Below, one piece after another: positions 34,846 through 54,707 of a stretch of DNA of 56,734 nucleotides. This DNA comes from Alphaproteobacteria bacterium (lineage in GTDB: Bacteria; Pseudomonadota; Alphaproteobacteria; UBA828), in assembly GCA_963422645.2 (NCBI GenBank), contig CAXXVO010000016.1, positions 1-56,734 on the forward strand, read 5' to 3'. The notes below the pieces were generated by a model. The model was given only the letters and a program-made list of their open reading frames with translations, searched no databases and was not told the DNA's origin. How positions within the stretch are numbered: the stretch's first letter is position 1; each line of letters opens with the position of its first letter. The translations under genes were made by a program, and so were the position numbers.

Positions 34846-34848
34846 CGG

Positions 34849-35720
34849 TCAGAAGCGCTCGCTCGCGCATCGAGAGAGGCGGCCCAAGCCTTGTACTGGC
34901 GGACCGAGAAGCGCTGGTAGCCGGTCACGTTGAAGGCGTAGGTGCCGTCCGCCACGCGGCGCTCGATGTATTCGAACTCCTCCAGCTCGACCGGCACGAA
35001 CTTGACCCGGTCGGCGGCATCGAGCAGCACGACCCGGTCGCGGTAGGCGGGGAGCCTCGCCTGCGTGTCCCAGAGCGGCACCGGGGTTCGGCCGATCAGG
35101 TTGTAGCCGCCCGGCCCCGGAGTCGTATAGATCGAGGTGGAGAGGCCGCCGACGCCGATGGCGCCGAGCGTGGTCCAGGTGCGCGGCGGGTTGTACTTGG
35201 GCGAGGTGATGGCGCAGCGCGGGTCGAGCGCCACCATCAGCGGTAGGCCCGGCGTGGAGCAGACGGCGACCACCCAGTGCTCGGTCCCCGAATGTACACG
35301 CGCAAGCTGAGCTGCGTCCTCCAACCCGTTGATGCGGGCCACGAACTCCGGGTCGCCGCTGCGCGGTGCGATGCGCTGGGCATAGTCCTCGACGCAGGCC
35401 TTGGTCCAGGGGTCGTTGTACATCACGGGGAGGTAGGCGAGGCGGCTCTCAAGCTCCAGGTCCTCGACCGAGCCGAGGCCCTCGATCAGGCGGCGAAGCT
35501 CGCGCTCGAGGTCGTCCGCACCGATCAGGTCGGGGTCGTACTCGACGACCACGGAGTTGTAGGAGGGATTGGTGTCGATCACGCCCTTCGTGCGGTCCTC
35601 CCGCAGCGCCGCGGTGAGGCCGAGGGCCATGAAGTTGAGGTCGATGCGCGCATCGTCGCCGAACTGCACCAGTACGAAGGTATCGCCGCCGGGTAGAAAG
35701 CGCGGCTCGTCGTAGATCAA
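34849..35720 (-). CDS. AHS1 / PxpB-like subunit (copy 2); a 2-nt insertion just before the natural stop
   Basis: 'IYDEPRF', 'PKYNPPRTWT', 'PGGY'; paralog ends LDMSVRF*, while here GATGCGCGAGCGAGCGCTTCTGA shifts ..ASERF* out of frame. Confidence 0.8.
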
Positions 35721-36700
35721 CGCGCGGCCTCCAGGCTCGACTCGGAGCAGAGCGCGTCGATGGCGCGGCGTGCCGCCTGCGCCTCCGATACCGAGACGAG
35801 GTGGAAGCGGTAGGTGTCGTTGGGCTTCGACTGGGCGAGCTTCCAGAACGCCGCCGAGGGCACCGTGTAGGGGTTGATGAAGCCGCCGGCCGAGGGTCCG
35901 TCGTTCACCAGGATGATCGGCGTCTGGCCGCAGAGGTTGACGGCGCCAACGGGATAGCCGTGGTCCAGGATGTTGGAGGGATGCTCGCCGTGCTCCGGCC
36001 CCTTGTCGGTCGCGCGGGCGGCGAAGGTCCACTCGGGGCCGGTGAGGCGAAAGCCGGTGCGGTTGCTGCGGGCCTGGAGCGTCCAGTCGCTCTCCAGGAA
36101 CATGCGCTGGCCCGCCTCGTCGATCCAGTCGTCGTTGGGGCCGGCCACGACCTCGATCTGCCAGCTCTTCTCCGCAGGCATGGGTGGCCGGCAGTCCTCC
36201 CGCACGCGCCGGCCGGGCGTCCCCTTGCCCGCGCCATCGCCGAGGGGCAGACGCTGGCCGTCCTCGATTGCATGTCCCTCCATGCCGCCCACGCCGGCCA
36301 TGTGGAAGGTCGAGCGGGAGCCCAGCACCGGCGCCGTGTCGATGCCGCCGGCGACGGCGAGATAGGCGCGGGCGCCGATGCGCGCGAATCCGGTCTCCAG
36401 CACCGCGCCGGCGGGAACGGCGACGCTCTCCCACTGGGGTATCGGGGCGCCGTCGAGCTTCGGCGCCATCGTCGCGCCGGTGAGCGCGATCACCGTCTCG
36501 CGTTCGAAGCGCAGCGTCGGGCCGAGGAACTGGATTTCGAGCCCGGCTGCATCGGCGGGGTTGCCGACCAGGAGGTTGGCGAGGCGGAAGGACCACATGT
36601 CGAAGGGTCCGGAGGGCGGGAAACCCTGCTCCCAGAAGCCGTAGCGGCCGGGAAAGTCCTGCACGCCGGTCTCCAGCCCGGCCTTGATGACCTCGATCAT
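35717..36700 (-). CDS. AHS2 / PxpC-like carboxyltransferase subunit (copy 1)
   Basis: 'TGVQDFPGR', 'LANLLVGN', 'SNRTGFRL'. Confidence 0.88.
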   Translation of the reverse strand: MIEVIKAGLETGVQDFPGRYGFWEQGFPPSGPFDMWSFRLANLLVGNPADAAGLEIQFLGPTLRFERETVIALTGATMAPKLDGAPIPQWESVAVPAGAVLETGFARIGARAYLAVAGGIDTAPVLGSRSTFHMAGVGGMEGHAIEDGQRLPLGDGAGKGTPGRRVREDCRPPMPAEKSWQIEVVAGPNDDWIDEAGQRMFLESDWTLQARSNRTGFRLTGPEWTFAARATDKGPEHGEHPSNILDHGYPVGAVNLCGQTPIILVNDGPSAGGFINPYTVPSAAFWKLAQSKPNDTYRFHLVSVSEAQAARRAIDALCSESSLEAAR

Positions 36701-37569
36701 CAGAACCGCACGCTCATGTCGAGGGTCTTGAGCCACGCGTGATAGGCGCGGATCGAGAACTTGGCGTAGGCCGCGACCTGGTGCTCGTAGTCGCCGCTCT
36801 CCACCTGGGCGGTCACGTGGTCGTACTCCTCGCGGCCCACGGGGACGAAGCGCACGCGGTCGCCGGGCTTGAGCAGCGCGAGGCGGTCGCGGAAGGCGCG
36901 CAGGCGCTGCTTCAGGTCGACCACCGGCACCGGCGAGTGACCGATGATCTGGTAGCCGCCCGGGGTGCGGGCCGGATAGAGGCAGGTGACGGAGCCGCCG
37001 TAGCCAAGCGTGCCCTTCGGAGTCCACGTGCGGGGCGGGTTGTATTTCGGCGCCGTGAGGCGACAGCGCGGGTCCAGCGCGATGAGCGAGGCGAGGCCCG
37101 GATAGAAGCCCAGCGCCGCGACCCAGTACTCGGTGCCCGAATGGATACGGGCAAGCTGCGCGCGGCTCTCAAGCTTGTTGAGCCGCACCATGAGGTCGGG
37201 ATCGTACTCCTTCTCGACGATGCGGGCGCAGTAGTCCTCCCAACACGCGCGGGTGACGTGATCGAAGTAGAGCACGGGGAAGGTGTAGAGCGGGCTCGGC
37301 AGCTCCACGTCCTCCAGCGAGCCGAGGGAGGCGAAGAGCGCGCCGATTTCGCGCACCACGTCGTCATAGCCGATCCGGTCCGGATCGTAGCTGATGACGA
37401 TGGAGGCCATGTTGGGCAGGAGCTCGATGATGCCGTCGAATTTGGCCTCGCGCACCCGCGCGGCCAAGGCGTGGACCAGGAAGTTGAGGTCGAAATTGAG
37501 CTCGTCCCCCAGCTCCATCTCGATGAAACGGTCGCCGCCCGGCGTGAATCGCGGCTCGTCGTAGATCAT
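36700..37569 (-). CDS. AHS1 / PxpB-like subunit (copy 1)
   Basis: 'MIYDEPRF', 'GFYPG', 'PKYNPPRTWT', 'PGGYQ'. Confidence 0.88.
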   Translation of the reverse strand: MIYDEPRFTPGGDRFIEMELGDELNFDLNFLVHALAARVREAKFDGIIELLPNMASIVISYDPDRIGYDDVVREIGALFASLGSLEDVELPSPLYTFPVLYFDHVTRACWEDYCARIVEKEYDPDLMVRLNKLESRAQLARIHSGTEYWVAALGFYPGLASLIALDPRCRLTAPKYNPPRTWTPKGTLGYGGSVTCLYPARTPGGYQIIGHSPVPVVDLKQRLRAFRDRLALLKPGDRVRFVPVGREEYDHVTAQVESGDYEHQVAAYAKFSIRAYHAWLKTLDMSVRF

Positions 37570-37893
37570 CGTGCGCGCCGGCCTCCGCCGCGTGTGCCCC
37601 CGGCCGAGAGGCCGGTGCGTTGGCCGGTTCTAGCGCGATCGGCCGTCAGGCGCCAAGCGTGGCGGCGCGTCCGCGCGGCGCGGACCGTGACCGTGAAGAG
37701 AAACAACAGTTACGTCTTGTTCCTGCTGATGCTCGTACTTGCTTAGGAGTACTCGGATACCGCTGTAACATTGGGGTTTGGCCGATATCCGACGATCCTG
37801 AAAGGCCAGGAGAGGTCAGGAACACCCCTGAAGTTACTCTCATGTGTTGTGGTTGGTGTTGATTGCGATCCCAAGCCATGCCATCATGCCCGC

Positions 37894-39162
37894 ATGCCAA
37901 ATTCCGGGAAGCGCGTCGCGCGCGTCAAGCTCACCATCGCCAAGCGCGCCATCGACAGCCTCGAGCCCGCCAACAAGCCATGGATCGCCTGGGATGACAA
38001 GCTGACAGGCTATGGCGTCCTCGTGCACCCCTCGGGCGTCAAGTCCTACATCGTCAACTACCGCCTGGGCGCGGGCGGCAGGACGGCGCCCAACAAGCGC
38101 CTCGTCATCGGACGCTGTGACAGGATGGCGGCCGAGCAGGCGCGGCGCGAGGCCCACAGGCTGCTCGGCATGGTCGCCATGGGCGAGGACCCGGCGGCCG
38201 AGCGCGCGAGGAGCCGGCGCATGCCCCCGCTCAGGCAGGCCTTCGAGCAGTACATGAGGGCCAATCCCAAGCGCAAGGCGAGCACCAACGAGTCCTACCG
38301 CGACCGCTTCGAGCGGCCGCTCGCCGACTGGCTTGCCCGTCCCCTCGACGCCATTACCCGGAGCGACGTGGAGGACCGTTTCAACCGCATCACCGAGAAG
38401 CATGGCTGGGCGACGGCCAACCAGTGCATCTCGCTCTTGCGCTCGGTCTATCGCCGGCCCTGCGTGGACATCGAGGGACTGGCCAATCCGGTCGACCTCT
38501 GGCTCGCAGGCGGCGGGAGGTTCCATCCCAAGCCGCGCCGCAAGATCCCGCCACCGGCGGAGGTCCTTCCGTGCTGGCGGAAGGGGATCGAGGCCGTAGT
38601 GAGCAACCCCGCCCTTCGCGACGTGTTCTGGTTCGGCATGTACACCGGCATGCGGCTCGGCGAGGTGCTGCCGCTCCGATGGGAGCGTGTGGACAGGGAG
38701 GCGCTCGTCTTCCGCGTGGATGAGACCAAGACGGGCGCGCCGCTGGAGCTGCCCATCACCCGGCAGCTGGCAGCCATTCTCGATCGCCGGTGGGCCGAGA
38801 GCGGCCACCTGCCGGGCGGTTGGGTGTTTTCCTCTGCCTCCAGCCGCACGGGCTATTTCGTGAAGTTGACCTATTTCCATCGCCGCATCAGCGAGGCAGG
38901 TGGCGCAAAATTCTGGTTCCACGGGCTGCGCAACTGCTTCATCACGGTGGCCGAGCGCGAGTTGATGCTCCCGCACGCCCTGACCAAGCGGCTGGTCAAC
39001 CACGCGCCGCCCAACGACGTTACCGAGGGGTACGCCGCCGACTGGACGATCGGGCAGCTGCGCGGGCCGGCTCAGCGCATAGCGGATTGCATCGAGGCCT
39101 TAATGATAAGTGCAGACTCCGAGCGTATCTGCGGCGAAAGGGCGGCGGTCGGGTCCTCATAA
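37894..39162 (+). CDS. Tyrosine integrase with N-terminal arm-binding domain (P4-like)
   Basis: 'WDDKLTGYGV...SGVKS'; catalytic R (TGMR), HGLR, NH and Y (TEGY). Confidence 0.9.
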   Translation: MPNSGKRVARVKLTIAKRAIDSLEPANKPWIAWDDKLTGYGVLVHPSGVKSYIVNYRLGAGGRTAPNKRLVIGRCDRMAAEQARREAHRLLGMVAMGEDPAAERARSRRMPPLRQAFEQYMRANPKRKASTNESYRDRFERPLADWLARPLDAITRSDVEDRFNRITEKHGWATANQCISLLRSVYRRPCVDIEGLANPVDLWLAGGGRFHPKPRRKIPPPAEVLPCWRKGIEAVVSNPALRDVFWFGMYTGMRLGEVLPLRWERVDREALVFRVDETKTGAPLELPITRQLAAILDRRWAESGHLPGGWVFSSASSRTGYFVKLTYFHRRISEAGGAKFWFHGLRNCFITVAERELMLPHALTKRLVNHAPPNDVTEGYAADWTIGQLRGPAQRIADCIEALMISADSERICGERAAVGSS

Positions 39163-39200
39163 CCTGAAGGTCGTAGGTTCAAATCCTACCCCCGCAACCA
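39156..39200 (+). other. att site: 3' half of tRNA-fMet (anticodon loop to CCA)
   Basis: CTCATAACCTGAAGGTCGTAGGTTCAAATCCTACCCCCGCAACCA; no tRNA 5' half upstream. Confidence 0.85.
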
Positions 39201-40836
39201 CCGAGACCGACATTCCCGAGATGGGCATGTCGGTCTTTTCCTTTTCGGTTCCGGTTTCCGTCCACTCCAGAATCCTGCCGAGCTCACCACGTAGCGTGAC
39301 TTGGAGTTCGCCGCGCTTTCCGCCGGGCGTCAGAACGATCCCGTCGATCAATCCCCGGATCGCAGCCGCGGCCGCATCGCGCTCTTCCGGCTTGCCAAGG
39401 GCTTTGGCGAGACGCCCCACCTTGCGGCGATAGACGCCGGAGACGTTCGGGTGGATGTCCGGGAGTTCGAGAGGCGCGGTTGCAAGGCGATCGTTCAGCT
39501 CCGCCTTTCGAACTTCGAGCTTGTGCAGCCGTTCCTTGAGCACGGCACTGTAGGCGCCATCCTGGATGGCGTCGACGACGCCGTCGATTTTCTTCTCGAT
39601 GTCTGCGAGCTCCTTGCGTTCCGCCTCGCTTGAGGCACTGCGCTCGCGGTTGAGCCGGTTGGTCTCCTCCGCCCACGCGCGCACCGCCGCGTCGGCAGCC
39701 TCGGGCGCCATCAGGTGGTCCTTGAGACCGACCAGGACGCGCTCCTCGAGTTCGGTGCGGCGAATACCCCGGCTGTTCGAGCAGCTGTCGTTCATGACGT
39801 GGTTGGAGCAGCCGTAGCGGTCCTGCCCGCGCATGGAATAGGGACCGCCGCAGACGCCGCATTCCAGGAGGCCCGAGAGCAAGTGGCGGGGCCGGTGGGT
39901 GCCGTTCAGGCGATTGGCGCGCGCACTGCGCGTGGCCTCGATGACGGTCGCGTACTTTGCGGTGAGTTCCTCCTGCCGGTCCTTCACCGCCTGCCAGAGC
40001 TCATCGTCGATGATGCGGAGCTCGGGAACCTCGGTGATTATCCACTCCTCGCGCGGATTGATCCGCGAAACCCGCTTGCCGGTCTCCGGGTTCTTGACGT
40101 AGCGCAGCCGGTTCCAGACCAGGCGCCCGATGTAGAGCTCATTGTTGATCAGCCCGGTGCCGCGCTTGACCTGGCCGCGGATGGTGGAGTCCGTCCAGAG
40201 CTTGCCCGAGGGGCAGGAGAATTTCTCGGCGTTGAGGCGCCTGGCGATCGTCCGTGGGCTGACGCCCGAGGCGAAGTCCCGGAATACGCGCCGCACGACG
40301 TTGGCTTCGGCATCGTTGATCGTGCGCTCACCCCGCACCGGCTCGCCGGCGGCATCGAAGGTCGTGACGACATCGTAGCCGTAGCACAGCCCGCCGCCGG
40401 AGCGGCCCTTCTCGACCCGGCCGCGCAACCCGCGGTGGGTCTTGGCCGCGAGGTCCTTCAGGAACAAGGCGTTCATCGTGCCCTTCAGGCCGACGTGGAG
40501 TTCGTTGACCTCGCCTTCGGACAAGGTGACGATCATTACGCGGGCGAACTGAAGGTGCTTGAACAACGCCGAGACGTCGGCTTGGTCCCTGCTCATCCGG
40601 TCCAGGGCTTCCGCCACGACGACGTCGAACGCGCCCGAGCGGGCATCCGCCAGCAGCGCCTGGATACCGGGGCGCAGGATCATGCTGTCGCCGGAGATGG
40701 CCGCATCGCGGTAGGTGTCCACGACCGTCCAGCCCGCCCGCTCCGCGTGCTCCCGGCAGATCCGGAACTGGTCCTCGATCGAGGCCGCGCTCTGAAGGTC
40801 CGAGGAGTAGCGCGCGTAGAGGGCGGCGCGGATCAT
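39157..40836 (-). CDS. Large serine recombinase (integrase)
   Basis: 'YARYSS' catalytic Ser, 'EALDRMSR', recombinase domain, Zn ribbon 'CGVCG'; C-terminus 'VAGVGFEPTTFRL' is the antisense of the tRNA fragment. Confidence 0.93.
   Translation of the reverse strand: MIRAALYARYSSDLQSAASIEDQFRICREHAERAGWTVVDTYRDAAISGDSMILRPGIQALLADARSGAFDVVVAEALDRMSRDQADVSALFKHLQFARVMIVTLSEGEVNELHVGLKGTMNALFLKDLAAKTHRGLRGRVEKGRSGGGLCYGYDVVTTFDAAGEPVRGERTINDAEANVVRRVFRDFASGVSPRTIARRLNAEKFSCPSGKLWTDSTIRGQVKRGTGLINNELYIGRLVWNRLRYVKNPETGKRVSRINPREEWIITEVPELRIIDDELWQAVKDRQEELTAKYATVIEATRSARANRLNGTHRPRHLLSGLLECGVCGGPYSMRGQDRYGCSNHVMNDSCSNSRGIRRTELEERVLVGLKDHLMAPEAADAAVRAWAEETNRLNRERSASSEAERKELADIEKKIDGVVDAIQDGAYSAVLKERLHKLEVRKAELNDRLATAPLELPDIHPNVSGVYRRKVGRLAKALGKPEERDAAAAAIRGLIDGIVLTPGGKRGELQVTLRGELGRILEWTETGTEKEKTDMPISGMSVSVVAGVGFEPTTFRL
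39206..39245 (+). terminator. Terminator-like hairpin downstream of the tRNA 3' fragment
   Basis: ACCGACAT..ATGTCGGT stem followed by CTTTTCCTTTT. Confidence 0.5.
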
Positions 40837-40837
40837 G

Positions 40838-41038
40838 TCATCGCTCCTGTCGGTCTCCGGTCTCCTTGACCGGCGTATTGTCGTTGGCCGAAGCCTGTCG
40901 CTCGAACTGCTCGCGGGCGATCTGGCGCCCGAGCAGGCGCGCGATGGTCAGCACGGCGGACCGGACCCGGGCCTCCGCCGCGCCGTTGTCGTTGGCGGCA
41001 ACGCGGTCCCTGGACCGTCCGCTTCCGTTTCTTCCCAT
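40838..41038 (-). CDS. Small protein immediately upstream of the recombinase (possible directionality factor)
   Basis: 'VLTIARLLGRQIARE', two ANDN motifs; stop abuts the recombinase start. Confidence 0.55.
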   Translation of the reverse strand: MGRNGSGRSRDRVAANDNGAAEARVRSAVLTIARLLGRQIAREQFERQASANDNTPVKETGDRQER

Positions 41039-41254
41039 AACGCCCCGCCTCCCCGCAACACCGACCCGCATGGGAGACGATCTTTGGGACGAATAGGGCA
41101 ATGTCAAGGGTTTTAATCTTTAGTATCAACGAGTTAGAGGGACATATGGGCATCCCTGCATCGCAGTGCAGCGCATGGCCGCGGGTGCCGACGATCAAGA
41201 ATGTTGATGCCGGATTGCCGCAAACCATGCCGAGGGGCGCTTCTCCGGGGACAA

Positions 41255-41530
41255 TCATCGTGGTGTCCGCCGATAGGCGTCTCGCCGGTGCGTGACACGA
41301 ACCACCAGCACGACAAGCTCCTCGTCCCGGACTTCGTACACGACGCGATAGTCCCCCACCCTGAGCCGCCGCAGACCCCGCAGACCCCGCAGGTCGCCCT
41401 TCAGCGCGGCACCGAGATGAGGGGTCTCGGCCAACCGGTCGATCGCGGCGACGATGCGCGTCCGGTCCGCCTTGGCCACCCGCCTCAGCTCCTTGGCTGC
41501 GCTCTCCTTAATCCGTATCGAGTAGCTCAC
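41255..41530 (-). CDS. RelE/ParE-family toxin
   Basis: 'YSIRIKESAAKEL', 'RLRVGDYRVVY', 'HRRDAY'. Confidence 0.88.
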   Translation of the reverse strand: MSYSIRIKESAAKELRRVAKADRTRIVAAIDRLAETPHLGAALKGDLRGLRGLRRLRVGDYRVVYEVRDEELVVLVVRVTHRRDAYRRTPR

Positions 41531-41732
41531 GCCGGACCTGGTCCCAGTCCAGCACCGGATCCGTGGGATCGCGGAGCCGGTCGATGGCGGCGGAAAGATC
41601 GTCGAAGTCTTCGAGGTAGTGCTCGACGGCGAGGCGGATGACGTCCGCCCGACTGCGCCTGAGTTGTGTTGCGGCCCTGTCAAGGGCCTCCACTACCGGG
41701 TCCGGCAATCGCGCGGTGACCTGCAGGGGCAT
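41508..41732 (-). CDS. Ribbon-helix-helix antitoxin
   Basis: 'QVTARLPD...RSRADVIRLAVEHYLEDFDDL'; overlaps the toxin gene. Confidence 0.85.
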   Translation of the reverse strand: MPLQVTARLPDPVVEALDRAATQLRRSRADVIRLAVEHYLEDFDDLSAAIDRLRDPTDPVLDWDQVRRELLDTD

Positions 41733-41882: not shown

Positions 41883-44800
41883 TCAGTGTCCCAAACGCTC
41901 GCGAACACCATCCTGATTGTCCCACCATTTCGCATCCCGGTCGTAGCTGACTGCGATTTGCTCAAGCATGTTCGCGGTGAAAGGGTGTTCAAAAGCCACC
42001 TCTCCGGACCAGTTTCGATACTGTTCTGAGAGCTTGCGTTCCTGGGCTCCGCCCTCGCCTCGCCAAGTCGCCCCGTGAGCGCTGTGGATACCGAAGATCA
42101 TGCCGATCGCGATTTTCTGAGATCCGATATCGTCTATGGCCTCGCGCACGGGCTCGCACGGCCAAATGCCGTCATCGCCGGGCGGGCAATGGGAAAGCAG
42201 TCGACCAATCATTTCATCGCCGATTTCTGCGCGGCCATGTTCGCGGGTGAGTGCGCGCAATTGCTTCAGCCAATCCCTTAGCCTCTTGAGATCAATGCTG
42301 CCATCGGCCTGGGTTCCGGGAATTCGGCTGGCAGTGGTGAGGAGCACGTAGCAGGCGTGCGCGATAGCGGAGCGGTTTTCAGAATTCGATAGCCGCCATT
42401 CTGCAGGGTCTTCTCCGCCATCGTCGCGCCTAAAGGCATGTGCGAGCGCATGTATGAACAGTGCCGGCGTCTCCGAGAGTTGCGCCTCCAGATTTCGAAT
42501 TCCGTGCTCGGTACGGTCAAGCGCCCCGATAAACATATACTCGAGCCGGGCAAGGTCGTCAGGGGACGTATCGCCCCGTTGTTCGAGCGTATCGAGTGCT
42601 TCCGAAACAGAGCGGCCATCAAGTCTGTAGTCGCTCGAAGGTTCCGCGCCATTGGTCGCAACTTCCGTCAACAGACGTATCAGCCGGGGAGAATCGACGA
42701 TTTGCCAATTCATGCGGGCGGCGTGGAATGCGGCGCGCGGCCGCCTCACTTTGAGAAGTTCGTCAATGAACCTGGCTATCTCAGGAGCATCATGGTGCCT
42801 CCAGAGGGGATTCACTTCCTTCCAATATCGCCGCCTCAGGCCATTGGGCAGCCGGTCAACGTGTTGCCAGGTGCCGCCGTCGAAAGGCGCGCAGCGCAGG
42901 AGGCGAATACGCGCATTCTTATCGGAGCCAAGGCGCGCGAGCAGCTCCGCGAGAGCGGCGTCACGGTCTGGCGTATCGAGCCTGGCCAGAAAACCGGCGA
43001 TGCACTGCCCGCACTTGTCCCGTAGCTCATCCGATTGCTCGGCCATGATGTCCTGGAGAAAATCCGTCCTCTGCTGAACCCCGGTGCAGATTTCGGCCAT
43101 GTGCCACCCCACCACGCGTGAGGCGTCGCCGGATCGGCACAGTTCCTTGATTCCGTCCGGCCCCGATTGCCCCCACACCTCCTGCAAGGCGTCACGTCGC
43201 TGGCGGGCAATGCGCTCCTCTCTTTTCTGGTAATCGAACTCTTCGTCCCCAAGCTCGTCAGCCGATTCATCCACCCACTCGCTGAGAAAAAGCCACTGAT
43301 GACGCGTTACGGCGTCTTGGGATTCGAGCAGCGCGCAAGCTTGGCGGGCACACTTCCTATCTGCGTCATCAAGTCGGCGGTGCCGGCTGAGCCGGGTTAG
43401 GACGCTGCACCGTATCCGCTCACGCAACGCCGCCTTCTTGCTGTCGGTAGGACCAGTGTCATTCCAGGCGCCAACAAGCTCCCACACTCGCTTGCGGTGG
43501 TCCGGACCTAGCGCCTTGAGGCGGCAGACCAGATCGCCGAGCGAATGCTCGTCGTGCGTCGACCAGCAAAGCGCAAGCTCTATCGCTTTACATTGACCCT
43601 GCCGCGCTTTGCCGCGTGTAATGACCTCTCCCGTGTCATTAGCGTCGGTGCGCCAGCGCGGCTTAGTACTGTAATCCCCGATGGTTGAACCCGGATTGAA
43701 TTGATCGACACAAACCTGCCAGCCGACCTTCGGGAACTTGTTGGTGAGCCGTTCGAGCGCCCGGTTGCGCTGGTCGAGTGAAGCGGCCGTCTGAGGCATC
43801 CATACCCGGAAGATCGATTTGAGCGTGTCCATGGGCTTGTTGGCCCAATTGTCATCGATCTGCCACGCGCACAGTCTTGCGAGAATAGACGTGACGCGGA
43901 CCAGCCGTTCCGGCTTCCAAGCCAGCAATTCGAGCGCCCACAGCATACCCGAGCGCGGACATTCGCCGAAAATCCCGGTATCCGCGGGCGCGAACAACGC
44001 GGCAATCTTCGGGTCCTCGCTGTCGAGGTCTGCTTCGATGATGCCAAGAAACGCATCCGGCGCGGCCTCGGCGTATTGTGGCAGATCGTTCTTCTGAGAT
44101 AGCCACGTTAACGTTGCTGAAGGGGTCAGCAGGCGGCGGACGACGCCACCAACAGCGGCCTCAAGGTCCATCCCGAGGCGCTCACCGACAAGGGCATTAC
44201 CATGCACGGCCAGAAGCACGAGCGTATCGCAGACGCCCGGACGGAGGGCGGACGAATGATCCCGGCTCTTTCCGTAGAGGTTCGCCGCCCACCGCTGGTC
44301 CTCCGGGAGCTCCAACGCGGGGTCTTGTTCAGACAGAACGATTTCAGCGACGAACAGGAAGTTCTCCAAGTCCTTCTTGGTGAGGGCTCGGTGCGTGGCA
44401 TCAAGCGCATCAATCTTGGAGACGACCCCGCGGAAATTGTCGATCGACCAGATCGGCGGTTCGTCCATTGTCTGGAGCTGAGCGATCGTTCTCTCCACGT
44501 CTTCGTAGGGCTTGTCGATCAGGCAGCGCAGTATTTCCTTGTCCGCATCGGCGCTGGAATCCCACGCGCCAACGAATATGAACGGGATCAGGGCCTGCGC
44601 GACATTGTTGTCGTTGGCCCAGGGCGGAAACTTCACGGCCTCAGCCTGCGCGAGGCGACGCCGGAGGATGGTTGGCGAACGCGCAGATTCCAGTGCAAGC
44701 TTGTCAATCTGGGTGTCGTCAAGTATAGTATCGTGCAGGGCCTCGCGGAACGGCTCATGGCCGAGCAGGTCAAGCGCGATGTTCGCGTCGTTTCTCACCG

Positions 44801-45968
44801 TATTGCGTCCGCGCACGATGATGGTGTGAGTTTTCTTCTGCAGTCCAGCGAGGGCCCGCTCGACATCAGACGAGGCAACGATCGCAATGAAGTTCGATGA
44901 TACCCTGGCGATGGTCCTGAAGGCCTCAAGGGAACGAATGACGATGGCACGCTCGTAGGCACCCGGGCATGTCTGTTCCAACCGTTCCAACCCGCAGCTC
45001 AGAAAGGCCAGAGCCTCCAGTGTCGAGTCGGCGGTAACGACGAAGGGGCTGGCCGGAGGTGCCTTCAGCCATGTCTCGAGCTGTTCCTGGGATCGTTCGG
45101 CAGCAGGAGTGAACAGCGTTTTCGGTAGCTCGGGCTCGGTAGCTCCCGCCCACTCAAGCCATATCCGATCCAGCGTTGTGACCTCCTGACCTGCGCCTCC
45201 CTGGAACTCCCGCATTCGGGTCTGCGCCGGGATCGACTGTTCCAGCCATTGTTCCAGGTCGCTGGCGTCGAAGGCGCGCACATCCTTCCATTCTCCCCGT
45301 GCGCTCTTGTCCTCGGCCCAGTTGTCTTTGCCGGTCCAGTTTCGCGGCGTCACAAACACGAACGTTGTAGATTTTCGTTCCTTGGCGGGAACGCTGGCGG
45401 TGCGGGTTCGATAGTCCGCCTCCGCCTTGGATTGGGGTGTGTTGCCGCATCCGAACTCCCAGCCGGATTTCCCGCACGGTATCCACGGAGTCGCCGATCC
45501 AGACGTGATCTGCCCGTCCCAGCCTTTCCGCTGGGAATTGTCGAAGGCCGGGAAATCGACCGCAGTCAGATTGCTGCCAGTCGTGTGCACCAGCGTGCGC
45601 AGCAGCGCCGGAAGCTGTGCACGCGCATCTATGGTATCCGCCCATGCGGCGACTTGACGGGCAGTAATCCCGAGAAATGCAGGCGTGTACGCGCGGACGA
45701 CGATATCGTCCTCGCGATCGCGCGCCTCGAATTCATCATACCGCGCCTGCATTTCAAGAAGCACTGAGGCGTCGGCGTGAAACGCCTTCTCGAACCGCAC
45801 GGCCATGTCGGGGGAAAGCGCGGCTCTGCCGTTCAGCAGATTGGATAAGGCAGGTCTGCCAACCTGAAGCATCCGGGCGGCCTTCGTCACCGAGAGTTCG
45901 GCGGGAAGAATCGATTGCTTGATGTGGGTTCCCGGATGGATCGGGGGCTTTCTCCGTAGCGATGTCAT
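41883..45968 (-). CDS. ~1360-aa HigA-type HTH fused to a restriction-endonuclease-like domain and a long helical region
   Basis: 'PIHPG...VTKAARMLQVGRPALSNLLNG...SPDMAVRFEKAF' HigA HTH; then 'GWDG', 'WEFG', 'FVFVTPR', 'DASDLEQWLE'. Confidence 0.8.
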   Translation of the reverse strand: MTSLRRKPPIHPGTHIKQSILPAELSVTKAARMLQVGRPALSNLLNGRAALSPDMAVRFEKAFHADASVLLEMQARYDEFEARDREDDIVVRAYTPAFLGITARQVAAWADTIDARAQLPALLRTLVHTTGSNLTAVDFPAFDNSQRKGWDGQITSGSATPWIPCGKSGWEFGCGNTPQSKAEADYRTRTASVPAKERKSTTFVFVTPRNWTGKDNWAEDKSARGEWKDVRAFDASDLEQWLEQSIPAQTRMREFQGGAGQEVTTLDRIWLEWAGATEPELPKTLFTPAAERSQEQLETWLKAPPASPFVVTADSTLEALAFLSCGLERLEQTCPGAYERAIVIRSLEAFRTIARVSSNFIAIVASSDVERALAGLQKKTHTIIVRGRNTVRNDANIALDLLGHEPFREALHDTILDDTQIDKLALESARSPTILRRRLAQAEAVKFPPWANDNNVAQALIPFIFVGAWDSSADADKEILRCLIDKPYEDVERTIAQLQTMDEPPIWSIDNFRGVVSKIDALDATHRALTKKDLENFLFVAEIVLSEQDPALELPEDQRWAANLYGKSRDHSSALRPGVCDTLVLLAVHGNALVGERLGMDLEAAVGGVVRRLLTPSATLTWLSQKNDLPQYAEAAPDAFLGIIEADLDSEDPKIAALFAPADTGIFGECPRSGMLWALELLAWKPERLVRVTSILARLCAWQIDDNWANKPMDTLKSIFRVWMPQTAASLDQRNRALERLTNKFPKVGWQVCVDQFNPGSTIGDYSTKPRWRTDANDTGEVITRGKARQGQCKAIELALCWSTHDEHSLGDLVCRLKALGPDHRKRVWELVGAWNDTGPTDSKKAALRERIRCSVLTRLSRHRRLDDADRKCARQACALLESQDAVTRHQWLFLSEWVDESADELGDEEFDYQKREERIARQRRDALQEVWGQSGPDGIKELCRSGDASRVVGWHMAEICTGVQQRTDFLQDIMAEQSDELRDKCGQCIAGFLARLDTPDRDAALAELLARLGSDKNARIRLLRCAPFDGGTWQHVDRLPNGLRRRYWKEVNPLWRHHDAPEIARFIDELLKVRRPRAAFHAARMNWQIVDSPRLIRLLTEVATNGAEPSSDYRLDGRSVSEALDTLEQRGDTSPDDLARLEYMFIGALDRTEHGIRNLEAQLSETPALFIHALAHAFRRDDGGEDPAEWRLSNSENRSAIAHACYVLLTTASRIPGTQADGSIDLKRLRDWLKQLRALTREHGRAEIGDEMIGRLLSHCPPGDDGIWPCEPVREAIDDIGSQKIAIGMIFGIHSAHGATWRGEGGAQERKLSEQYRNWSGEVAFEHPFTANMLEQIAVSYDRDAKWWDNQDGVRERLGH

Positions 45969-46043
45969 GGCGCATCCAATCCCGTCTTCAACGCAATCAG
46001 GCACTCAGGTTGAAACGGTGACCTGCTCTCCTGATGCACCTGC

Positions 46044-46083
46044 ACACACATAGAATTATAGTGTGTCGCGCGACGGGATACAA
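46044..46083 (-). promoter_or_regulatory. Sigma70 promoter with overlapping palindrome upstream of the HigA-fusion gene
   Basis: Minus strand TTGTAT-N17-TATAAT; ACACACATA-GAAT-TATAGTGTGT imperfect palindrome covers the -10. Confidence 0.65.
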
Positions 46084-46225: not shown

Positions 46226-48510
46226 TCAGGCTTCCTCGAACCCGTGGATGGCGAATCGCAGCGTGCGGCAGTTCTCGTCGACGACCCGTTGCACGTCCCC
46301 GGAGACGCCCTCCGCCGTCTCGGCCTCGATCTCGACCGTGACCCGGACCTTCCCACCAGGCATCGTCGTCAGGTGTTGCAGGACCTCTTCGGCAACCTTG
46401 CCCATGTCGCGGCCGGCGCGATCCGGATCGATCTCGACCGTGCCGAAGAAGCGCCGCGGAAGGAGCGAAGGACGCGGCTCAGGGTCATACTCCGGCGGGT
46501 CCGACTCCCGAACTCCGCCAGACCCTGCATCGGATCCCGCATGCGGATCGGGCTCCCGGCGTTTCGTCTCCAGCCGCTCGGCCTCGATCTGCGCGCGTGC
46601 GGCGTCCGGTTTGACCAGAATGCTTGCCGCGTCGACATATACCGCGGCGGCCGGCGCGCCGAACGTCAGCCCCTCGTAGCGTCCGCTCTCCGACACGCTG
46701 GTTGCGTATGCAAAGTACTCCCCGCCCGCGATCCCGTCCTGGACTGCCTCGACGAAAACCGCCCGATCCCGCAATCGCGGCAGATAACAATAGGAAGCGA
46801 GCGCATCCCATACCGTCTTCGCCGAGACGTGATCCCGGTCGTTCCAGAACCAGCGGTCGAGCTCCATCCGGAGCAGCGCCGGCGACCAGCGGACGATGAC
46901 GTGTTCGGCGGCGCGCACGTGCCGGGACGCCCGGAGCAGGATCGACTCCCCGGCGCCCGCCGCCCGAAAGATATCCCAACCGAGCTCGCCGACATCGCCG
47001 TTCGCGACCGGCTGCGCCGGCGCCAGGAGCCAACGCCATGCCTCATCGAACCGGATGCGGACATTGCGGTCGCTCGCCTTCTCGCCGTCGGACGCCTCGC
47101 GCCTCTGGTGCGTGTCGAGATTGAGCGCCTCCTGGTCGCGGACCACCGACTGCCAGGCGAGGAAGCGCCTTGTTTCCTGCCGCAGGCCGTCCATCGCCTC
47201 GCGGTCCGCGGCGAGAAACACGAGTGCGTTGCGGTGCTGGCGCGGCGCCGTCCCACGGTAGGCGAGGATGTCGCCCGCGGCCTGCAGTGCGGCGCTCTCC
47301 GGGTCGGAGCTCCGATGGGGCGTGTCCGGCCGCAACACGACGAGTCGGCATTCCTGCTCGTCGGGCACGTCACCGGGCGACGCCGGACAGGCGTGCACGC
47401 CCCGGAACTCGCCCCGCTCGCGGCGGGCGGTCTCGCGCACCCGCCGCTCGATCTCGCCCTCGACCTCGTCATCCGCAACTTGCTGCGCGCGCTCCTCGAC
47501 GGTTCGCCGCAGGTTCGGCCGCGTGTCGTACCAGTAGCGCCGGTCCTTGCGGTAGAGATAGGTCAGCCGTTCGGAAAGCTGCGACAGGGCATCGTTGAAC
47601 ACCGAGACGGCCTCGCCCGGCTGCACCGCGCCAAGACGCACGCGCACGTCCTCGACGCCGCGCACCTGCTGCTGGACCACATGCGGTGCGCTGCCGAGGA
47701 AGATCGAGCGCGCCACGCGCCGCGCCGCCAGCGTCCGGCCGAAGCGCGGATTCCCGGAATCGATCCGTAACGGTCCCGAGTTGCGCCCGTCCACATCGCT
47801 TTCCAGCACCGAAGGCCAGCCCTCCGGCAGGTAGCGCGTCAGCTCCTCGCGCACCGCTACTGCGTCGAGGCCGAGCGCGCCGGGCAGGATCAGCAGGCTC
47901 GCGTCGTTGCGCACCCACAGATCGTGGATCACCGCCGCCATCAGGCGCAGCACCCCGCGCGTGCGCTGGAAGCGCTCGAGGGTCGCCCAGTCCGCGTAAA
48001 GCCGGTCGAACACCTCCGGATGGAGCGGGTAGCAGGACTTCATCCGCTCAAGATAGCGCGTTTCGCGGCATTCGCCCGGAAACGCGTCGCCCTCGTCGCG
48101 GTAGAGCTGGCTGAACGCGCGGCACACATCGTCGCGCGCCGGCTCGTCGTCGATCGGCAGGAAGAGCCGCCGGCGCACCACCTCGAAGCCCTCCTCGGAG
48201 CCGACCGGCTTCCAGATCGCCTCCATGCGACCGAAGGTATGTTCGATCCGCGCGAGGGTCTCCTTCCCCGCCTCGCCGCCGATCTCGATGTCGGACTCCG
48301 GGATCGTCGCCACCAGCGCCGTGTTCCTGCTCGCGCGCGCCGCCTCGGTGAGTTCCTGGATGAAAGTCTGCACGGCATCGAAGCTTCCCGCCGGCAGCCC
48401 TTCGGCGCCGGGCGGTACGCCCTTGCGGTCCGCGTCGCGCACATGGTCGTAGAGCTTCCGGTTGCCCGCTTGCTCCGCAAGCTGCGCGCCGATCTCGCCC
48501 CACAGCGTGC
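46226..48510 (-). pseudogene. DUF499-family ATPase, N-terminus removed at the IS66 boundary
   Basis: 'TLWGEIGAQL' at the junction, 'EVVRRRLF', 'YPLHPE', 'FQRTRGVLRLMA'; Walker A region absent. Confidence 0.8.
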
Positions 48511-50367: not shown

Positions 50368-51225
50368 TCACGGCCGTGGCATCCGCCATCCGAACAACTC
50401 ACGCCAAGTCTCGACGGCCGCCCGTTCCTTGCCCTCGTATTCCAGCTGCAGCGCCTCCTCCGCGACCCCAAGCCATCCACGCACCAGGACCGAGAGCTGC
50501 CGCCGCCGCTCCGGGCTGATCCCTGCATTCACATCCGGGCCGATCCCCACGGGATCCGGCCAGTCTTCCCCGATCTGGTCAACAACCGACGCTAGGAAGA
50601 ACCGAATCTCGTCGCGGTACCGACCGAATGGCTCAACCACCAGATCGAGCCCCATCACCTCTAGCAGGAACGCCGGCTCGATCGGCTCTCCCGCCTCGCG
50701 GTTCATGCCCTTTACCATCTTCACGAACGGCACGAACTTCTCGTCGCAGGCATTGTTCTTCGCTGTCACGAGCCTGTGCTGCTCTTGCGGATCGGTGTCC
50801 ATCCACCCTGCCCCGTTCGGCATCAAGTATCCACCCCCGTCCCGCGGAAACACCGGGGCGACTTCGTAGGAGGCGACATCCTCGTCGCCGTAGTTGATTG
50901 TCACGACGTTGTCGTCGTCTTCCAGATTGCTCCACCGCTTCGCCAACACGTCGCGCAATGCGAGCACCGCAGCCGTTCCCGTACCGTCTGCCAGCGAGCG
51001 TTGGGGTCCGTCCGGGTCCACGACGACGAAGATGTCCACGTCCTTCAGCTTCTTCGTCTTCGTGTCCCGGCGATAGCTGCCGGTTAGGAAATGGTCGACG
51101 AATTTCCAATTGTCCTCAATGTGTTCGCGGATCAACCGGTGCCGCGTCTGGGCCTGCTCGCTCTCCGTCTTCGTGATCTCGAGATTCGACTTCAGGTTGT
51201 CGAAGGCGTCATCGACATAGCTCAT
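50368..51225 (-). CDS. CBASS CD-NTase (CdnD-like oligonucleotide cyclase)
   Basis: 'FLTGSYRRDTKTKKLKDVDIF' nucleotidyltransferase motif; adjacent to HORMA and TRIP13 genes; resembles recalled P. aeruginosa CdnD. Confidence 0.9.
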   Translation of the reverse strand: MSYVDDAFDNLKSNLEITKTESEQAQTRHRLIREHIEDNWKFVDHFLTGSYRRDTKTKKLKDVDIFVVVDPDGPQRSLADGTGTAAVLALRDVLAKRWSNLEDDDNVVTINYGDEDVASYEVAPVFPRDGGGYLMPNGAGWMDTDPQEQHRLVTAKNNACDEKFVPFVKMVKGMNREAGEPIEPAFLLEVMGLDLVVEPFGRYRDEIRFFLASVVDQIGEDWPDPVGIGPDVNAGISPERRRQLSVLVRGWLGVAEEALQLEYEGKERAAVETWRELFGWRMPRP

Positions 51226-51235
51226 CGCAAATCAC

Positions 51236-51748
51236 CTATCTACGGTAGTAGTGCATACCAGCCGTAGCATGCGGGCCGCTTGCGAGCGTGCCGAAGCTGC
51301 TCGACCGCATGCCGTCCAAAGACGCCCTCGTACCCGGCGACCAGCCAAGCTGTTGTGAGTACGTCCCGTTGTAACTGCAAAAGAGCCGGTACACGGTCCC
51401 GCGCGGCACGCCGCGAAGCTTCGCCATATACCGCGCCCGCGCTGCCCGATCCGCTGTGAACTGCCGATCCCCGACTCCAACTGCGGTATACGTCACCGGA
51501 AACTCGAATATCGGATCCACCGTTCCATCCGGCCGGTGGCACTCGAGGGCGACGCACTTGAGCGATCCTTCGGCAATCCATGCCGAAATCGCCGATTGGT
51601 CGGTCTCCCAATCCGCGAACAGCCGGGTCCGATCGATACCCAACGTGCCCAAGATGTCGGCGATGGAGCCCAGGATCACATCCGCCAGATGCGTGGCCGT
51701 GTGGGTGCGCGTAAAGGTCGAGACCGACGCCCTTGACCTTGTCACCAC
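51236..51748 (-). CDS. Bacterial HORMA protein (HORMA2-type, CBASS type III)
   Basis: 'TFTRTHTATHLADVIL..I.DIL', 'AISAWI..G.L..V.LE', 'GWSPG..AS.DGM' resemble recalled P. aeruginosa HORMA2. Confidence 0.82.
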   Translation of the reverse strand: MVTRSRASVSTFTRTHTATHLADVILGSIADILGTLGIDRTRLFADWETDQSAISAWIAEGSLKCVALECHRPDGTVDPIFEFPVTYTAVGVGDRQFTADRAARARYMAKLRGVPRGTVYRLFCSYNGTYSQQLGWSPGTRASLDGMRSSSFGTLASGPHATAGMHYYRR

Positions 51749-52167
51749 TTCGATGACTCCCGGCGAAGCGCATCAAGATCTATCGCCGACGCCGTCTCGC
51801 CCTTCTTCGCCACCGGCGCCGACTTCGGCGCCGGCTCTACCGACAAATGCACAGACCGCTTCGCCGCCGCCTCGACGCTGGCATCCAGCGCTCCCGGCAA
51901 CGGCAGATACAACATCCACCCGTCGGTCGCGCTGGAACCGCCGGGGACGGGATTCAGATTCTCCTTCACGCCGAGCGCCGCTTCGGCCGTCGCCACCGTA
52001 ACCGTCACGTGCAGCCCGATGTCGCAGAGCACCACACCCTTCGACTCGAGGTGGCCGCCTGCGATCAGCGCTGGACCCAAGCCGTCCAGCGCGCTCAATG
52101 CCTCGCGGACGCTCCCCACCGGAACCACCGGGCTACGCTCCAGCGTGTCGGCGACTAGTGTCCCTAG

Positions 52168-53787
52168 GAGTGTGCGCCGCAGGAATCGCGGATCGCAAGG
52201 GATTGCTTTCCTGCGAAGCGACTGTGTGATCTGATAAGGCATCGCGTAGCGAGGACGGGTTGGATGTCGACGACGTATCGTCCCTATCAGCCGGACCAGT
52301 TGCTGTTGCTGGCGCCGGACCTTCGGGAGTGGCTCCCGGCGGGTCACTTGGCGCATCACGTGAGCGATTTGGTGGATTCTCTGGAGTTGAGCGCGTTGTA
52401 CGCGCCGTATGAGGGTGACGGTCGGCGCAATTCCCCGTACGAGCCCTCGATGATGGTCAAGGTGTTGATTTACGCCTATGCGACGGGGGTGTTTTCCTCG
52501 CGCGCGATTGCGAGAAAGATCGAGGAGGACGTGGCGTTTCGGGTGCTGGGGGCGGGGAACTTCCCGCAGCACCGCACGATTTGTGAATTTCGCCGTCGTC
52601 ATCTCGAAGACTTCGAGCGGATGTTCGTCGAGGTGGTGCGGGTGGCGCGCGAGATGGGGGTGGTGCGGTTTGGGACGCTGTCGGTCGATGGGACGAAGGT
52701 GCGGGCGAACGCGAGCAAGCGCAAGGCGATGAGCTATGGGCGGATGTTGACCGAGGAGTCTCGGCTGAAGGAGGAGATTCAACGGCTGCTGGACCGAGCG
52801 GGCGCGGTCGATGCCGAAGAGGATGAACGCTACGGTGATGAGGTGCGCGGTGATGAGTTGCCCGCGGAGCTCGAACGGCGCGAGAAACGCCTGGCGGCGA
52901 TTCAGGAGGCGAAGGCGCGGCTGGAAGCGGCGCAACGTGAGGCCGATGACGCGCGCGGGCGCGAGCCCGGCCAGGACCGCAATCGCAAAGGAGGCCGGCC
53001 GTACAAGCGCGCCTACGGTGAGCCCGACCCCGGTGCGCAGAGCAACTTCACCGACCCCGAGAGCCAGATCATGAACACCTCCACCGAGGGGTTCCAGCAG
53101 TGCTACAACGCCCAGACGGTGGTCGACGAGACGCATCAACTCATTGTCGCCACCGATGTCGATGCGAACGCCAGCGACCAGGGCCAGTTGCTCCCATTGC
53201 TCGATGGGGTGAGCGAGACCTTCGATGTCGAGCCCGAGGTGGTGTTGGCCGACGCGGGCTACTGCAACGAGGCGGACTTGGTGGCGTTGGAGCAGTGCGG
53301 CATCGATGCTCATGTCGCGCTGGGGCGCGAGGGCAAGGCACGAGTGGCGGTGGACCCCGAGACGCGTCCGGCCACCCACCGCATGGGCGAGAAGCTGGCC
53401 AGTAAGACGGGCCGGGCTCAATACGCCAAGCGCAAGTGGTTGTCCGAGGCACCGAACGGCTGGATCAAAGAGGTGCTGGGGTTCCGGCGGTTCAGCGTTC
53501 GGGGTGCGCACCAAGTCCGAGGTGAATGGCATCTGGTGTGCCTGGCATTGAACATCAAGCGCATGGCGGGGCTGGCGGCATGTTGACGCAACCAATGGCG
53601 CTTCGCGGTGTCGACTGGCGGGGGTCGTTCGCCCCCGCAACGCGCTCTCTACGCCTTCGAGCGTTCCCGGCGCAGTTCCTCGGCTCCGGACCATGAAAAA
53701 CCCCAATCACCGCGTTCGGTCAATCGGCCGACGTCACTACGGCCAAACGCCGTTTGCCCGACGCGAAAACTCCTGCGGCGCACGCTC
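52168..53787 (+). mobile_element. IS1182-family element
   Basis: 17-bp IR GAGTGTGCGCCGCAGGA (1 mismatch); CTAG duplicated on both sides. Confidence 0.9.
52264..53586 (+). CDS. IS1182 transposase
   Basis: 'SVDGTKVRANAS', 'TDPES', 'YNAQ', 'LADAGY'. Confidence 0.92.
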   Translation: MSTTYRPYQPDQLLLLAPDLREWLPAGHLAHHVSDLVDSLELSALYAPYEGDGRRNSPYEPSMMVKVLIYAYATGVFSSRAIARKIEEDVAFRVLGAGNFPQHRTICEFRRRHLEDFERMFVEVVRVAREMGVVRFGTLSVDGTKVRANASKRKAMSYGRMLTEESRLKEEIQRLLDRAGAVDAEEDERYGDEVRGDELPAELERREKRLAAIQEAKARLEAAQREADDARGREPGQDRNRKGGRPYKRAYGEPDPGAQSNFTDPESQIMNTSTEGFQQCYNAQTVVDETHQLIVATDVDANASDQGQLLPLLDGVSETFDVEPEVVLADAGYCNEADLVALEQCGIDAHVALGREGKARVAVDPETRPATHRMGEKLASKTGRAQYAKRKWLSEAPNGWIKEVLGFRRFSVRGAHQVRGEWHLVCLALNIKRMAGLAAC

Positions 53788-54681: not shown

Positions 54682-54707
54682 TGGACTTGCCCCGGTTTCG
54701 TGGACGG

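Follow-up and report, generated by a model that had tools for sequence, protein, structure and literature searches.

The gene at 41883..45968 on the minus strand of the window (the whole stretch analysed, 56,734 nucleotides, positions 1 to 56,734 of contig CAXXVO010000016.1 in assembly GCA_963422645.2, from an alphaproteobacterium of the UBA828 lineage) encodes a large protein that begins with a HigA-type helix-turn-helix (HTH). Judging from its sequence and modelled structure, we lean, if only slightly, towards reading it as a self-repressed, nucleotide-independent, Avs-like abortive-infection sensor-nuclease, distant kin of Avs8A (PD-lambda-4 A). Four elements of this reading are inferred: that the protein senses a phage protein, that it assembles without nucleotide, that a rearranged active site cleaves DNA, and that the gene is autorepressed. 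The source records name its relatives only "HigA family addiction module antitoxin" or, for the plasmid copies, "helix-turn-helix transcriptional regulator", and for this family the antitoxin name is misleading. A preliminary description of the same DNA had proposed a sensor-effector layout, and this proposal is sustained by homology to Avs8A, an experimentally shown anti-phage sensor.

Domain architecture and relationship to Avs8A

The gene and its parts, all on the minus strand, are the following.

41883..45968, minus strand: focal gene, 1361 residues plus stop, with HTH, nuclease, NOD-like (nucleotide-binding oligomerisation domain-like) domain without P-loop, winged helix and alpha-solenoid; homologs are full-length
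45720..45947, minus strand: HigA-type (XRE) HTH, residues 8-83, TIGR02607 at 62.3 bits
45198..45671, minus strand: PD-(D/E)xK (Mrr/restriction-endonuclease-like) domain, residues ~100-257, with D151 (GWDG), E171 (WEFG) and K181; from AlphaFold2 and VIA
44619..45191, minus strand: STAND/AAA+-like nucleotide-binding-fold domain and helical lid, residues ~260-450, without Walker A or B; from Foldseek and VIA
45003..45044, minus strand: former Walker A site, residues 309-322 (VVTADSTLEALAFL)
44409..44609, minus strand: winged-helix-like module, residues ~454-520, helix-strand-helix-helix-strand-strand; from the secondary structure of the model only
41886..44408, minus strand: HEAT/ARM-like alpha-solenoid, putative sensor, residues ~521-1361 (~850 residues); from AlphaFold2
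43749-44090, minus strand: stretch of the solenoid most like Avs8A, residues 627-740

The longest minus-strand frame, 41883..46004, would give 1373 residues if read from a GTG. The ATG at 45968 opens 1361 codons without an internal stop and is the start common to the homologs, whose start regions align and whose M1 is invariant in the family alignment (A1); the intact frame of about 1360 residues claimed earlier is real. Its GC content is about 0.60, against 0.65-0.71 in the flanks.

The N-terminal HTH had been recognised from the letters as HigA-type, rightly so: its score exceeds the 47.7-bit cut-off of TIGR02607, the NCBI HigA equivalog model. Pfam returned HTH_3 alone for the whole protein, and a profile search of PDB sequences matched the HTH region to HigA/XRE chains only (solved HigA antitoxins such as 2icp and 6chv among them) and residues 90-1361 to nothing significant; the ESM Atlas matches comprised the protein's own family and unnamed clusters only. 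HigA antitoxins are about 100 residues long and paired with HigB, whereas here the HTH makes up 6% of 1361 residues and HigB is missing, as had been remarked: the upstream gene is a fragment of HmaC/DUF499, and no small open reading frame (ORF) is conserved beside the gene in the 55 loci kept from a one-genome-per-species search. A canonical HigBA module was rejected because there is no HigB.

The remainder of the protein was modelled with AlphaFold2 in two parts, each from a 46-row alignment: residues 86-470 (predicted local distance difference test, pLDDT, 91.2; predicted template modelling score, pTM, 0.89) and residues 450-1361 (pLDDT 90.8). With the first model as query, Foldseek ranked portal-bound Avs4 (8dgf_A) highest among PDB entries, at E 2.2e-6 over 371 columns; next came Avs5, SAMD9 and Avs3, and the probabilities of these four matches were 0.89-1.00. 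The VIA search, which is independent of Foldseek, splits this model into two domains. Residues ~100-257 match AF1548 (Z 9.7, root-mean-square deviation (rmsd) 2.5, 110 aligned), R.BspD6I (Z 9.1) and FokI (Z 8.8), and further MspJI, Card1/Can2, LlaBIII and AspBHI. The predicted core is alpha-beta-beta-beta-alpha-beta, with D151 just before model strand 67-71 and E171 in model strand 81-87, so that the PD-(D/E)xK fold proposed for roughly residues 95-250 is recovered in the model. Residues ~260-470 match ClpC1 (Z 8.6), ClpA (8.1), RFC (7.8), ZAR1 (7.5), CED-4 (7.3) and Avs5 (7.0), a range of 7-8.6 that is about the level which VIA rates common. What carries the argument for the predicted folds is the consistency of the match lists, together with one chain, Avs4, that covers both domains. 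The modelled protein has the STAND/AVAST layout of a nucleotide-binding-domain fold, a helical lid, a winged helix (by secondary structure only) and a repeat sensor. The ~1000 residues beyond the nuclease, previously described as having no Walker A, do lack one, but they are not featureless: they open with the STAND/AAA+-like domain, in which Walker A has been replaced.

Avs4 (PDB 8dgf), a portal-sensing protein with an Mrr-like nuclease, is both the best structural match and the only chain to cover nuclease and NOD together; VIA aligns 307 of its residues, and both proteins have a helical-repeat sensor. The two differ in that identity is 13-14% and the overall rmsd 10-12 Å, which corresponds to a different domain arrangement, and in that Avs4 is by family name a P-loop STAND NTPase whereas the focal family has no P-loop.

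The closest relationship is with Avs8A. PD-lambda-4 has been renamed Avs8, and Avs8A is described as an Mrr nuclease joined to a P-loop STAND NTPase that is predicted to form a tetramer and is triggered by HK97-fold capsid proteins; a B gene of unknown function accompanies it (10.1101/2025.07.02.662641). Capsid sensing by Avs8 was confirmed in a later preprint; a figure legend there says of the Klebsiella homolog KpAvs8 that its degenerate Walker motifs are "suggest[ing] a lack of ATPase activity" (10.64898/2026.01.04.697583). We compared our family alignment with hhalign to an alignment (A5) of four PD-Lambda-4_A-matching proteins from 401 genomes of the phylum, and obtained 98.75% with E 1.4e-16 over 885 columns (query 112-1103, template 20-1008), a span that takes in nuclease and NOD and reaches into the sensor. 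Against a single Avs8A the figure was 91.6%, over the sensor stretch 627-740, and against an Avs2 protein, used as a control, 0.4%. BLASTP of the focal protein against the same Avs8A sequence gave E 3e-5 and 26% identity over 147 residues. By these profile comparisons the relationship between the family and Avs8A is real, specific and distant.

Both have the same order of Mrr-type nuclease, NOD and helical sensor; their sizes are close (1283 residues for Avs8A, 1272 for the focal protein after its HTH), and the GxDG and (E/Q)x motifs of Avs8A align with those of the family. The differences are as marked. Identity to the focal family is ~15%. PADLOC (version 2.0.0) gave a single match for the focal protein, to PD-Lambda-4_A, at E 2.4e-4 and 16.9 bits and over residues 631-741 only, whereas true members score 100-2488 bits; at E<=1e-5 the same model matches 7 of the 401 genomes, and the focal genome is not among the seven. 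Avs8A has GxxGxGKT, the Walker B aspartate and the lysine of QxK; the family has ADSxxEALA in place of the first, has lost the second and carries G or S for the third. It also adds a HigA-type HTH and a conserved candidate operator. Finally, Avs8 is a two-gene system with Avs8B, and no Avs8B-like partner is conserved at the 55 loci; PD-Lambda-4_B was absent from 127 neighbour ORFs at E 1e-10 and from 24 ORFs at E 1e-5, with a B model in the library that is itself unconfirmed. The family lies outside Avs8 proper: the focal protein reaches 16.9 bits with the PADLOC model, Walker A is replaced, and an Avs8B-like partner is not conserved. The earlier statement that the protein could be matched to no named system stands as far as membership is concerned, and gives way to a remote tie with Avs8/PD-lambda-4.

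At locus L065 (538-5256) a 1573-residue protein matching the Avs8A model at 642 bits keeps its Walker A and has an N-terminal extension of 322 residues with HTH_3. Fusion to an HTH is thus a recurrent feature of the wider Avs8 group and does not depend on loss of the P-loop. BLASTP of the focal protein against this Avs8-like protein found nothing significant.

The nuclease matches (Mrr-type, FokI, MspJI, AspBHI and LlaBIII folds) would also suit a restriction-like enzyme that reads modified or foreign DNA directly through its Mrr-type domain and HTH, with the solenoid as scaffold or regulatory target, and at several loci restriction-modification, Hma or GmrSD genes are neighbours. We nevertheless consider such an enzyme improbable: the homology to the protein-sensing Avs family runs the whole length, no methyltransferase partner is conserved, and the operator of the HTH is its own promoter, which fits regulation rather than targeting.

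Replaced Walker and catalytic motifs

Conservation was counted over 40 aligned relatives and six further members, five of them HTH-less and one from a Rhizobium plasmid. GxxxxGK[ST] occurs in none of these 46 (0/40 and 0/6), and the missing Walker A noted at the outset is thereby extended from one protein to all 40 relatives and the six others. In the joint alignment with Avs8A, the Walker A site of the family has the consensus A-[DE]-S-x-x-E-A-L-A, of the same length as the GxxGxGKT present in all four Avs8A; this ADSxxEALA-type motif is found in 40/40 relatives and in all six further members. The replacement residues are kept, A313 and S315 being nearly invariant, E318 invariant and A321 conserved. 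The Walker B aspartate, in the same joint alignment, is not conserved in the family.

The nuclease-like region first picked out by its GWDG, WEFG and FVFVTP motifs is present, with a predicted PD-(D/E)xK fold and with D151 conserved in 40/40, E171 in 39/40 and K181 in 40/40 of the aligned relatives. GWDG lies opposite the GID of the Avs8 motif DGGID, and WEFG opposite FQxK, with E171 in the place of Q. At the position of the canonical (D/E)xK lysine all 40 relatives have G or S, and K181, eight residues further on, is invariant. Mean pairwise identity is 0.47 in the nuclease, 0.44 in the HTH, 0.31 in the NOD-like domain, and 0.36 and 0.28 in the two halves of the solenoid, a pattern consistent with a nuclease that works as effector, a scaffold under relaxed constraint and a sensor that diversifies.

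The loss of Walker A, Walker B and the canonical lysine could be taken to mean that the gene is a decayed relic of an Avs8-like gene, with a dead NTPase and a dead nuclease, that hitch-hikes in islands; indeed, of the two copies that this genome holds, an insertion sequence (IS) splits one. We give this reading hardly any credence. Intact frames of ~1360 residues extend over 6653 clusters (50% identity) and many phyla, the replacement motifs (A313, S315, E318, A321) are conserved and the models are confident, and 1361 codons kept open down to 33% identity would not be expected of a relic.

A more far-reaching version is possible, and we put it forward tentatively: the family would be a very large, hitherto unnoticed clade of NLR-like immune receptors without a nucleotide switch, in which the P-loop has been rebuilt as ADSxxEALA, the NOD serves as a ligand-gated oligomerisation scaffold, and the HTH relieves its self-repression on assembly.

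The promoter and a conserved candidate operator

Three elements lie upstream of the start codon.

46055..46083, minus strand: promoter-like TTGTAT-N17-TATAAT (TTGTAT 46083-46078, TATAAT 46060-46055), read from the sequence
46044..46066, minus strand: palindrome over the -10, ACACAC (46044-46049) and GTGTGT (46061-46066), perfect 6-nt arms 11 nt apart
46062..46077, minus strand: family-conserved palindrome, consensus TGTGTAGC and GCTACACA for the two arms; here CCCGTCGCGCGACACA, with the 10-bp core GTCGCGCGAC a perfect palindrome

The hexamers that had been read as the gene's own promoter are in the sequence, and they flank the conserved palindrome in orthologues as well, for example at L006. 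A promoter scan of the region did not list them, because the -35 matches the consensus at 3 of 6 positions. The palindrome that had been drawn over the -10 exists too, but it is not kept in L001, an orthologue with 89% identity; what the family conserves is the palindrome at 46062-46077, whose right half-site the ACACAC/GTGTGT pair re-uses together with a second GTGTGT downstream.

This conserved block, TGTGTAGCGCTACACA when its consensus is written as one string, was first exposed by aligning the upstream regions of orthologues with 67-89% protein identity, and an inverted-repeat scan found the same palindrome theme in distant phyla. The focal site occupies 16 of the 17 spacer bases between -35 and -10. 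In close orthologues the arms reach TTGTATTGTGT...ACACAATACAA, which places the -35 and -10 hexamers themselves within the palindrome. We scored the consensus arms with a spacer of 0-6 (maximum 16) in the 55 upstream regions and, as background, in 5297 equal-size windows of the same loci. A score of at least 13 was reached by 36/55 regions against 4/5297 windows, at least 12 by 48/55 against 1.2% of the background, and at least 14 by 19 regions against no window, figures that are somewhat inflated because the consensus was drawn from the loci in which it was then counted. The only two HTH-less loci with upstream DNA, L008 and L047, score 10 and 9, the level of the background; five HTH-bearing loci score below 12. 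An operator-like palindrome over the core promoter is, as sequence, conserved across phyla and gone where the HTH is gone.

The half-site arms tend to co-vary, with the palindrome preserved, and position 6 of the half-site varies symmetrically between loci (GTAGC/GCTAC, GTTGC/GCGAC, GTCGC/GCGAC). Between the putative -10 and the start codon lies a leader of ~80 nt with an imperfect inverted repeat at 45996-46035 (15-nt arms, 73% complementary, 10 nt apart), which is conserved in L001 and in the second copy of the gene in this genome.

Type II antitoxins commonly have a palindromic operator over their own promoter, and the focal gene likewise has a candidate palindromic operator there. No other regulator is conserved nearby, which makes the fused HTH the obvious binder of the palindrome, and autorepression by this domain is probable.

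An HTH with a conserved palindrome, joined to a NOD-like fold and a repeat sensor, also recalls a signal-sensing transcription factor of the STAND type. Like the focal protein, MalT/LAL-type regulators carry NOD, helical-repeat sensor and HTH on a single chain; their HTH, however, is C-terminal and LuxR-type, they need ATP and they have no nuclease. The focal protein has an N-terminal HTH of the XRE type and a nuclease, and lacks a P-loop. As such a factor it would detect a ligand with its solenoid, oligomerise through the NOD-like domain and act on transcription with the HTH, and the nuclease-like domain would be a non-catalytic module for DNA binding or dimerisation, in line with a canonical lysine that is gone in 40/40. 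We regard this as unlikely: the sole conserved site is at the gene's own promoter and no conserved neighbour is there to be regulated, HTH-less members keep the rest of the protein, the nuclease is the most conserved domain, with D151 and K181 invariant, and by profile the protein comes closest to Avs8A, an immune nuclease.

The HigA antitoxin domain suggests another use, a module for addiction or stability that mobile elements carry as a single protein, in which the HTH restrains the fused nuclease toxin both transcriptionally and in cis until stress or loss of the element sets it free, with no phage sensing. The window copy and the second copy sit in integrative islands with recombinases, 18 plasmid records carry copies, and toxin-antitoxin genes are frequent beside the gene. 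Yet post-segregational killing relies on an antitoxin that decays faster than its toxin, which a fused antitoxin of equal stability cannot do; moreover, HTH-less members exist, and a conserved solenoid of ~850 residues with a NOD-like domain, homologous to the Avs8 sensor, would be superfluous. We hold out little prospect for such a module.

Under the Avs-like reading, an HTH dimer on the palindrome would at rest keep a potentially toxic nuclease scarce. On infection the solenoid would bind a conserved phage protein, as Avs8 does the HK97-fold capsid protein, and binding would free the oligomerisation domain for nucleotide-free assembly. The nuclease domains, brought together, would cut DNA via the rearranged active site and so abort the infection, and the promoter could be de-repressed as the HTH is drawn off into oligomers.

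Family distribution, genomic context and significance

The family is large. Of the 2007 relatives returned by a word-indexed search, the best 120 are all ~1300-1370 residues long and colinear, and an exhaustive HMMER search with residues 90-1289 returned the 6653 clusters mentioned above at E<=1e-3, 2773 of them at E<=1e-30. With one genome per species, a relative is encoded in at least 630 of 666 candidate stretches. By record titles, the 55 loci belong to Alpha- and Gammaproteobacteria, Acidobacteriota, Gemmatimonadota, Armatimonadota, Bacteroidota, Chloroflexota, Latescibacterota, Cyanobacteria, Bacillota, Actinomycetota, Desulfobacterota and Binatia. Among 150 listed representatives, 16 are HTH-less and begin within 21 residues of the nuclease region, and a Rhizobium plasmid clade has a different XRE-type HTH. 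The 18 plasmid records hold near-full-length copies (at least 80% coverage), one family copy being on the conjugative Shewanella baltica OS195 plasmid pS19502; cultured strains with members also include Paenibacillus chitinolyticus NBRC 15660 and Azospirillum endophyticum, beside the Rhizobium plasmids. Closer to home, a full-length gene is present in only 3 of 61 related genomes (its own, one congener and one of the same class), the other 27 matches in these genomes being ordinary HigA genes of ~100 residues; the focal gene is a sporadic accessory gene.

One phage record, MT837561.1 ("Bacteriophage sp.", 6.6 kb), has a coding sequence distantly related to residues 107-716 (22.7% identity, E 2e-32) and is the sole match among 50,697 phage records.

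The preliminary description had called the gene stand-alone, and the comparison of all ORFs against all agrees: no neighbour cluster is present in more than 8 of the 55 loci, which suggests that the protein acts alone or with unlinked partners. Neighbours were scanned with Pfam and PADLOC over 127 of 311 selected ORFs within 4.5 kb, covering loci L001-L024 and two ORFs of L025. Defence genes are found within 4.5 kb at 8 of the 24 loci: HmaC with DruA; an AriA/GajA-like ATPase; a TOTE primase-helicase; Avs2 with Lit; SoFic with GmrSD; a type II restriction-modification set of Dcm, HNH and Vsr; a GajB-like helicase; and OloB of Olokun. Integrase, transposase or coupling-protein genes occur at four loci, one of them within the defence set, which brings loci with defence or mobile genes to 11/24. 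Elsewhere, the member on one conjugative Rhizobium plasmid has AbiEi/AbiEii and a Gabija-like pair as neighbours.

At L006 (5083-9258 and 14353-15285), from an Arenicellales genome, the member lies between a full Avs2 upstream (796 bits) and a Lit-like protease downstream, an arrangement that makes this locus a dense defence island.

Around the focal gene, the window holds the following.

33856-37569: carboxyltransferase-domain genes in two tandem pairs (CT_A_B with CT_C_D, twice), just outside the integrase
37771-39162, plus strand: tyrosine integrase
39157-40836: large serine recombinase, beyond the ribbon-helix-helix (RHH)/RelE pair and the 141-residue ORF in minus-strand transcription order
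40833-41258: 141-residue ORF between the RelE-type toxin and the serine recombinase, without Pfam, NCBIfam or PADLOC match
41255-41683 (ORF), minus strand: RelE/ParE-type toxin, downstream of the focal gene, RelE domain in residues 56-137
41508-41732, minus strand: RHH antitoxin, downstream neighbour
46226..48442, minus strand: HmaC (DUF499) fragment of an Hma system, upstream of the focal gene; C-terminal 738 residues, cut by IS66; HmaC model 801 bits, profile positions 213-941
50368-56723: type III CBASS (cyclase, HORMA, TRIP13, 4TM effector), beyond IS66

The recombinases, the Hma fragment and the CBASS place the intact focal gene in an integrative defence island, whose chromosomal side is marked by the carboxyltransferase gene pairs. 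The neighbours are those named earlier, the CBASS being broken at 52264-53586 by an IS4/IS5-type transposase and at 54708-55879 by an IS3 element, and probably inactivated; the focal gene is, as had been observed, free of such insertions, unlike its neighbours. The RHH/RelE pair is not conserved beside homologs in the 55 loci. The HmaC fragment is not part of the focal gene's unit. Hma adjoins the family gene at L001 and, in this genome, at both copies; DUF499/HmaC-like ORFs are found in L031, L033 and L047; a functional tie to the adjoining Hma/DUF499 system was not adopted, because it is limited to few of the 55 loci.

The second copy in this genome (contig C5:104183-110476; L073 8184-14477) is split after residue ~1064 by a 613-residue DDE transposase. 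It lies downstream of intact HmaA, a PDC-S32/AbiJ-like gene, HmaB and HmaC (L073 11-7970), the HmaC of this island carrying an N-terminal HEPN_Swt1, and upstream of the same recombinase pair. Compared with the window copy it is a mosaic, with 89% identity across residues 1-1064 and 99% across 1062-1361, which suggests recombination or gene conversion between the two islands.

Several points weigh against an Avs-like sensor-nuclease, beside the common level of the NOD-like domain scores and the inflation of the palindrome counts given above. Catalysis would have to rest on K181, which is assumed to be the relocated lysine, the canonical one being replaced family-wide. Characterised Avs proteins use a P-loop NTPase domain, and the family is without one. 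The matches of the solenoid in Foldseek (CAND1, transportins, SF3B1) are generic, and the Avs4 sensor matches it at Z 7.3, tied with unrelated repeats, so that no specific sensor type emerges. The left arm of the focal operator is eroded, with three outer bases off consensus and a score of 11-12/16. The defence association expected of homologs holds at the 11 loci with defence or mobile genes and fails at the other 13/24, which have only housekeeping, unknown or PIN-type/toxin-antitoxin-like neighbours; these are raw counts without a background rate and are suggestive only, island enrichment being unestablished. We found no paper that names the family, and no experiment on any member. Even so, none of the rivals fits the whole architecture as well as an Avs-type sensor-effector.

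Avs/STAND sensor-nucleases are known, and one Avs8 homolog with degenerate Walker motifs is in print. In the literature we found no description of a phylum-spanning clade with Walker A and B replaced family-wide, which the supplements of a STAND survey (10.64898/2026.01.04.697583) may nevertheless list, nor of a family-wide loss of the catalytic lysine or of a fused HigA-type HTH with a conserved operator.

If the reading is true, thousands of genes now called "HigA antitoxin" or "helix-turn-helix transcriptional regulator" in many bacterial phyla, a family that escapes detection by PADLOC 2.0.0, would be re-read as Avs-like sensor-nucleases. The conserved candidate operator would offer a direct handle on how the expression of a single-chain immune nuclease is controlled. 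Were the family in fact one of receptors without a switch, the HTH would couple the state of the receptor to its own transcription, a feed-forward loop built into a single-chain immune system. Lack of Walker A and B throughout a family with STAND architecture would amount to a natural experiment on whether NLR-type receptors can do without a nucleotide switch, something hinted at so far for one Avs8 homolog only.

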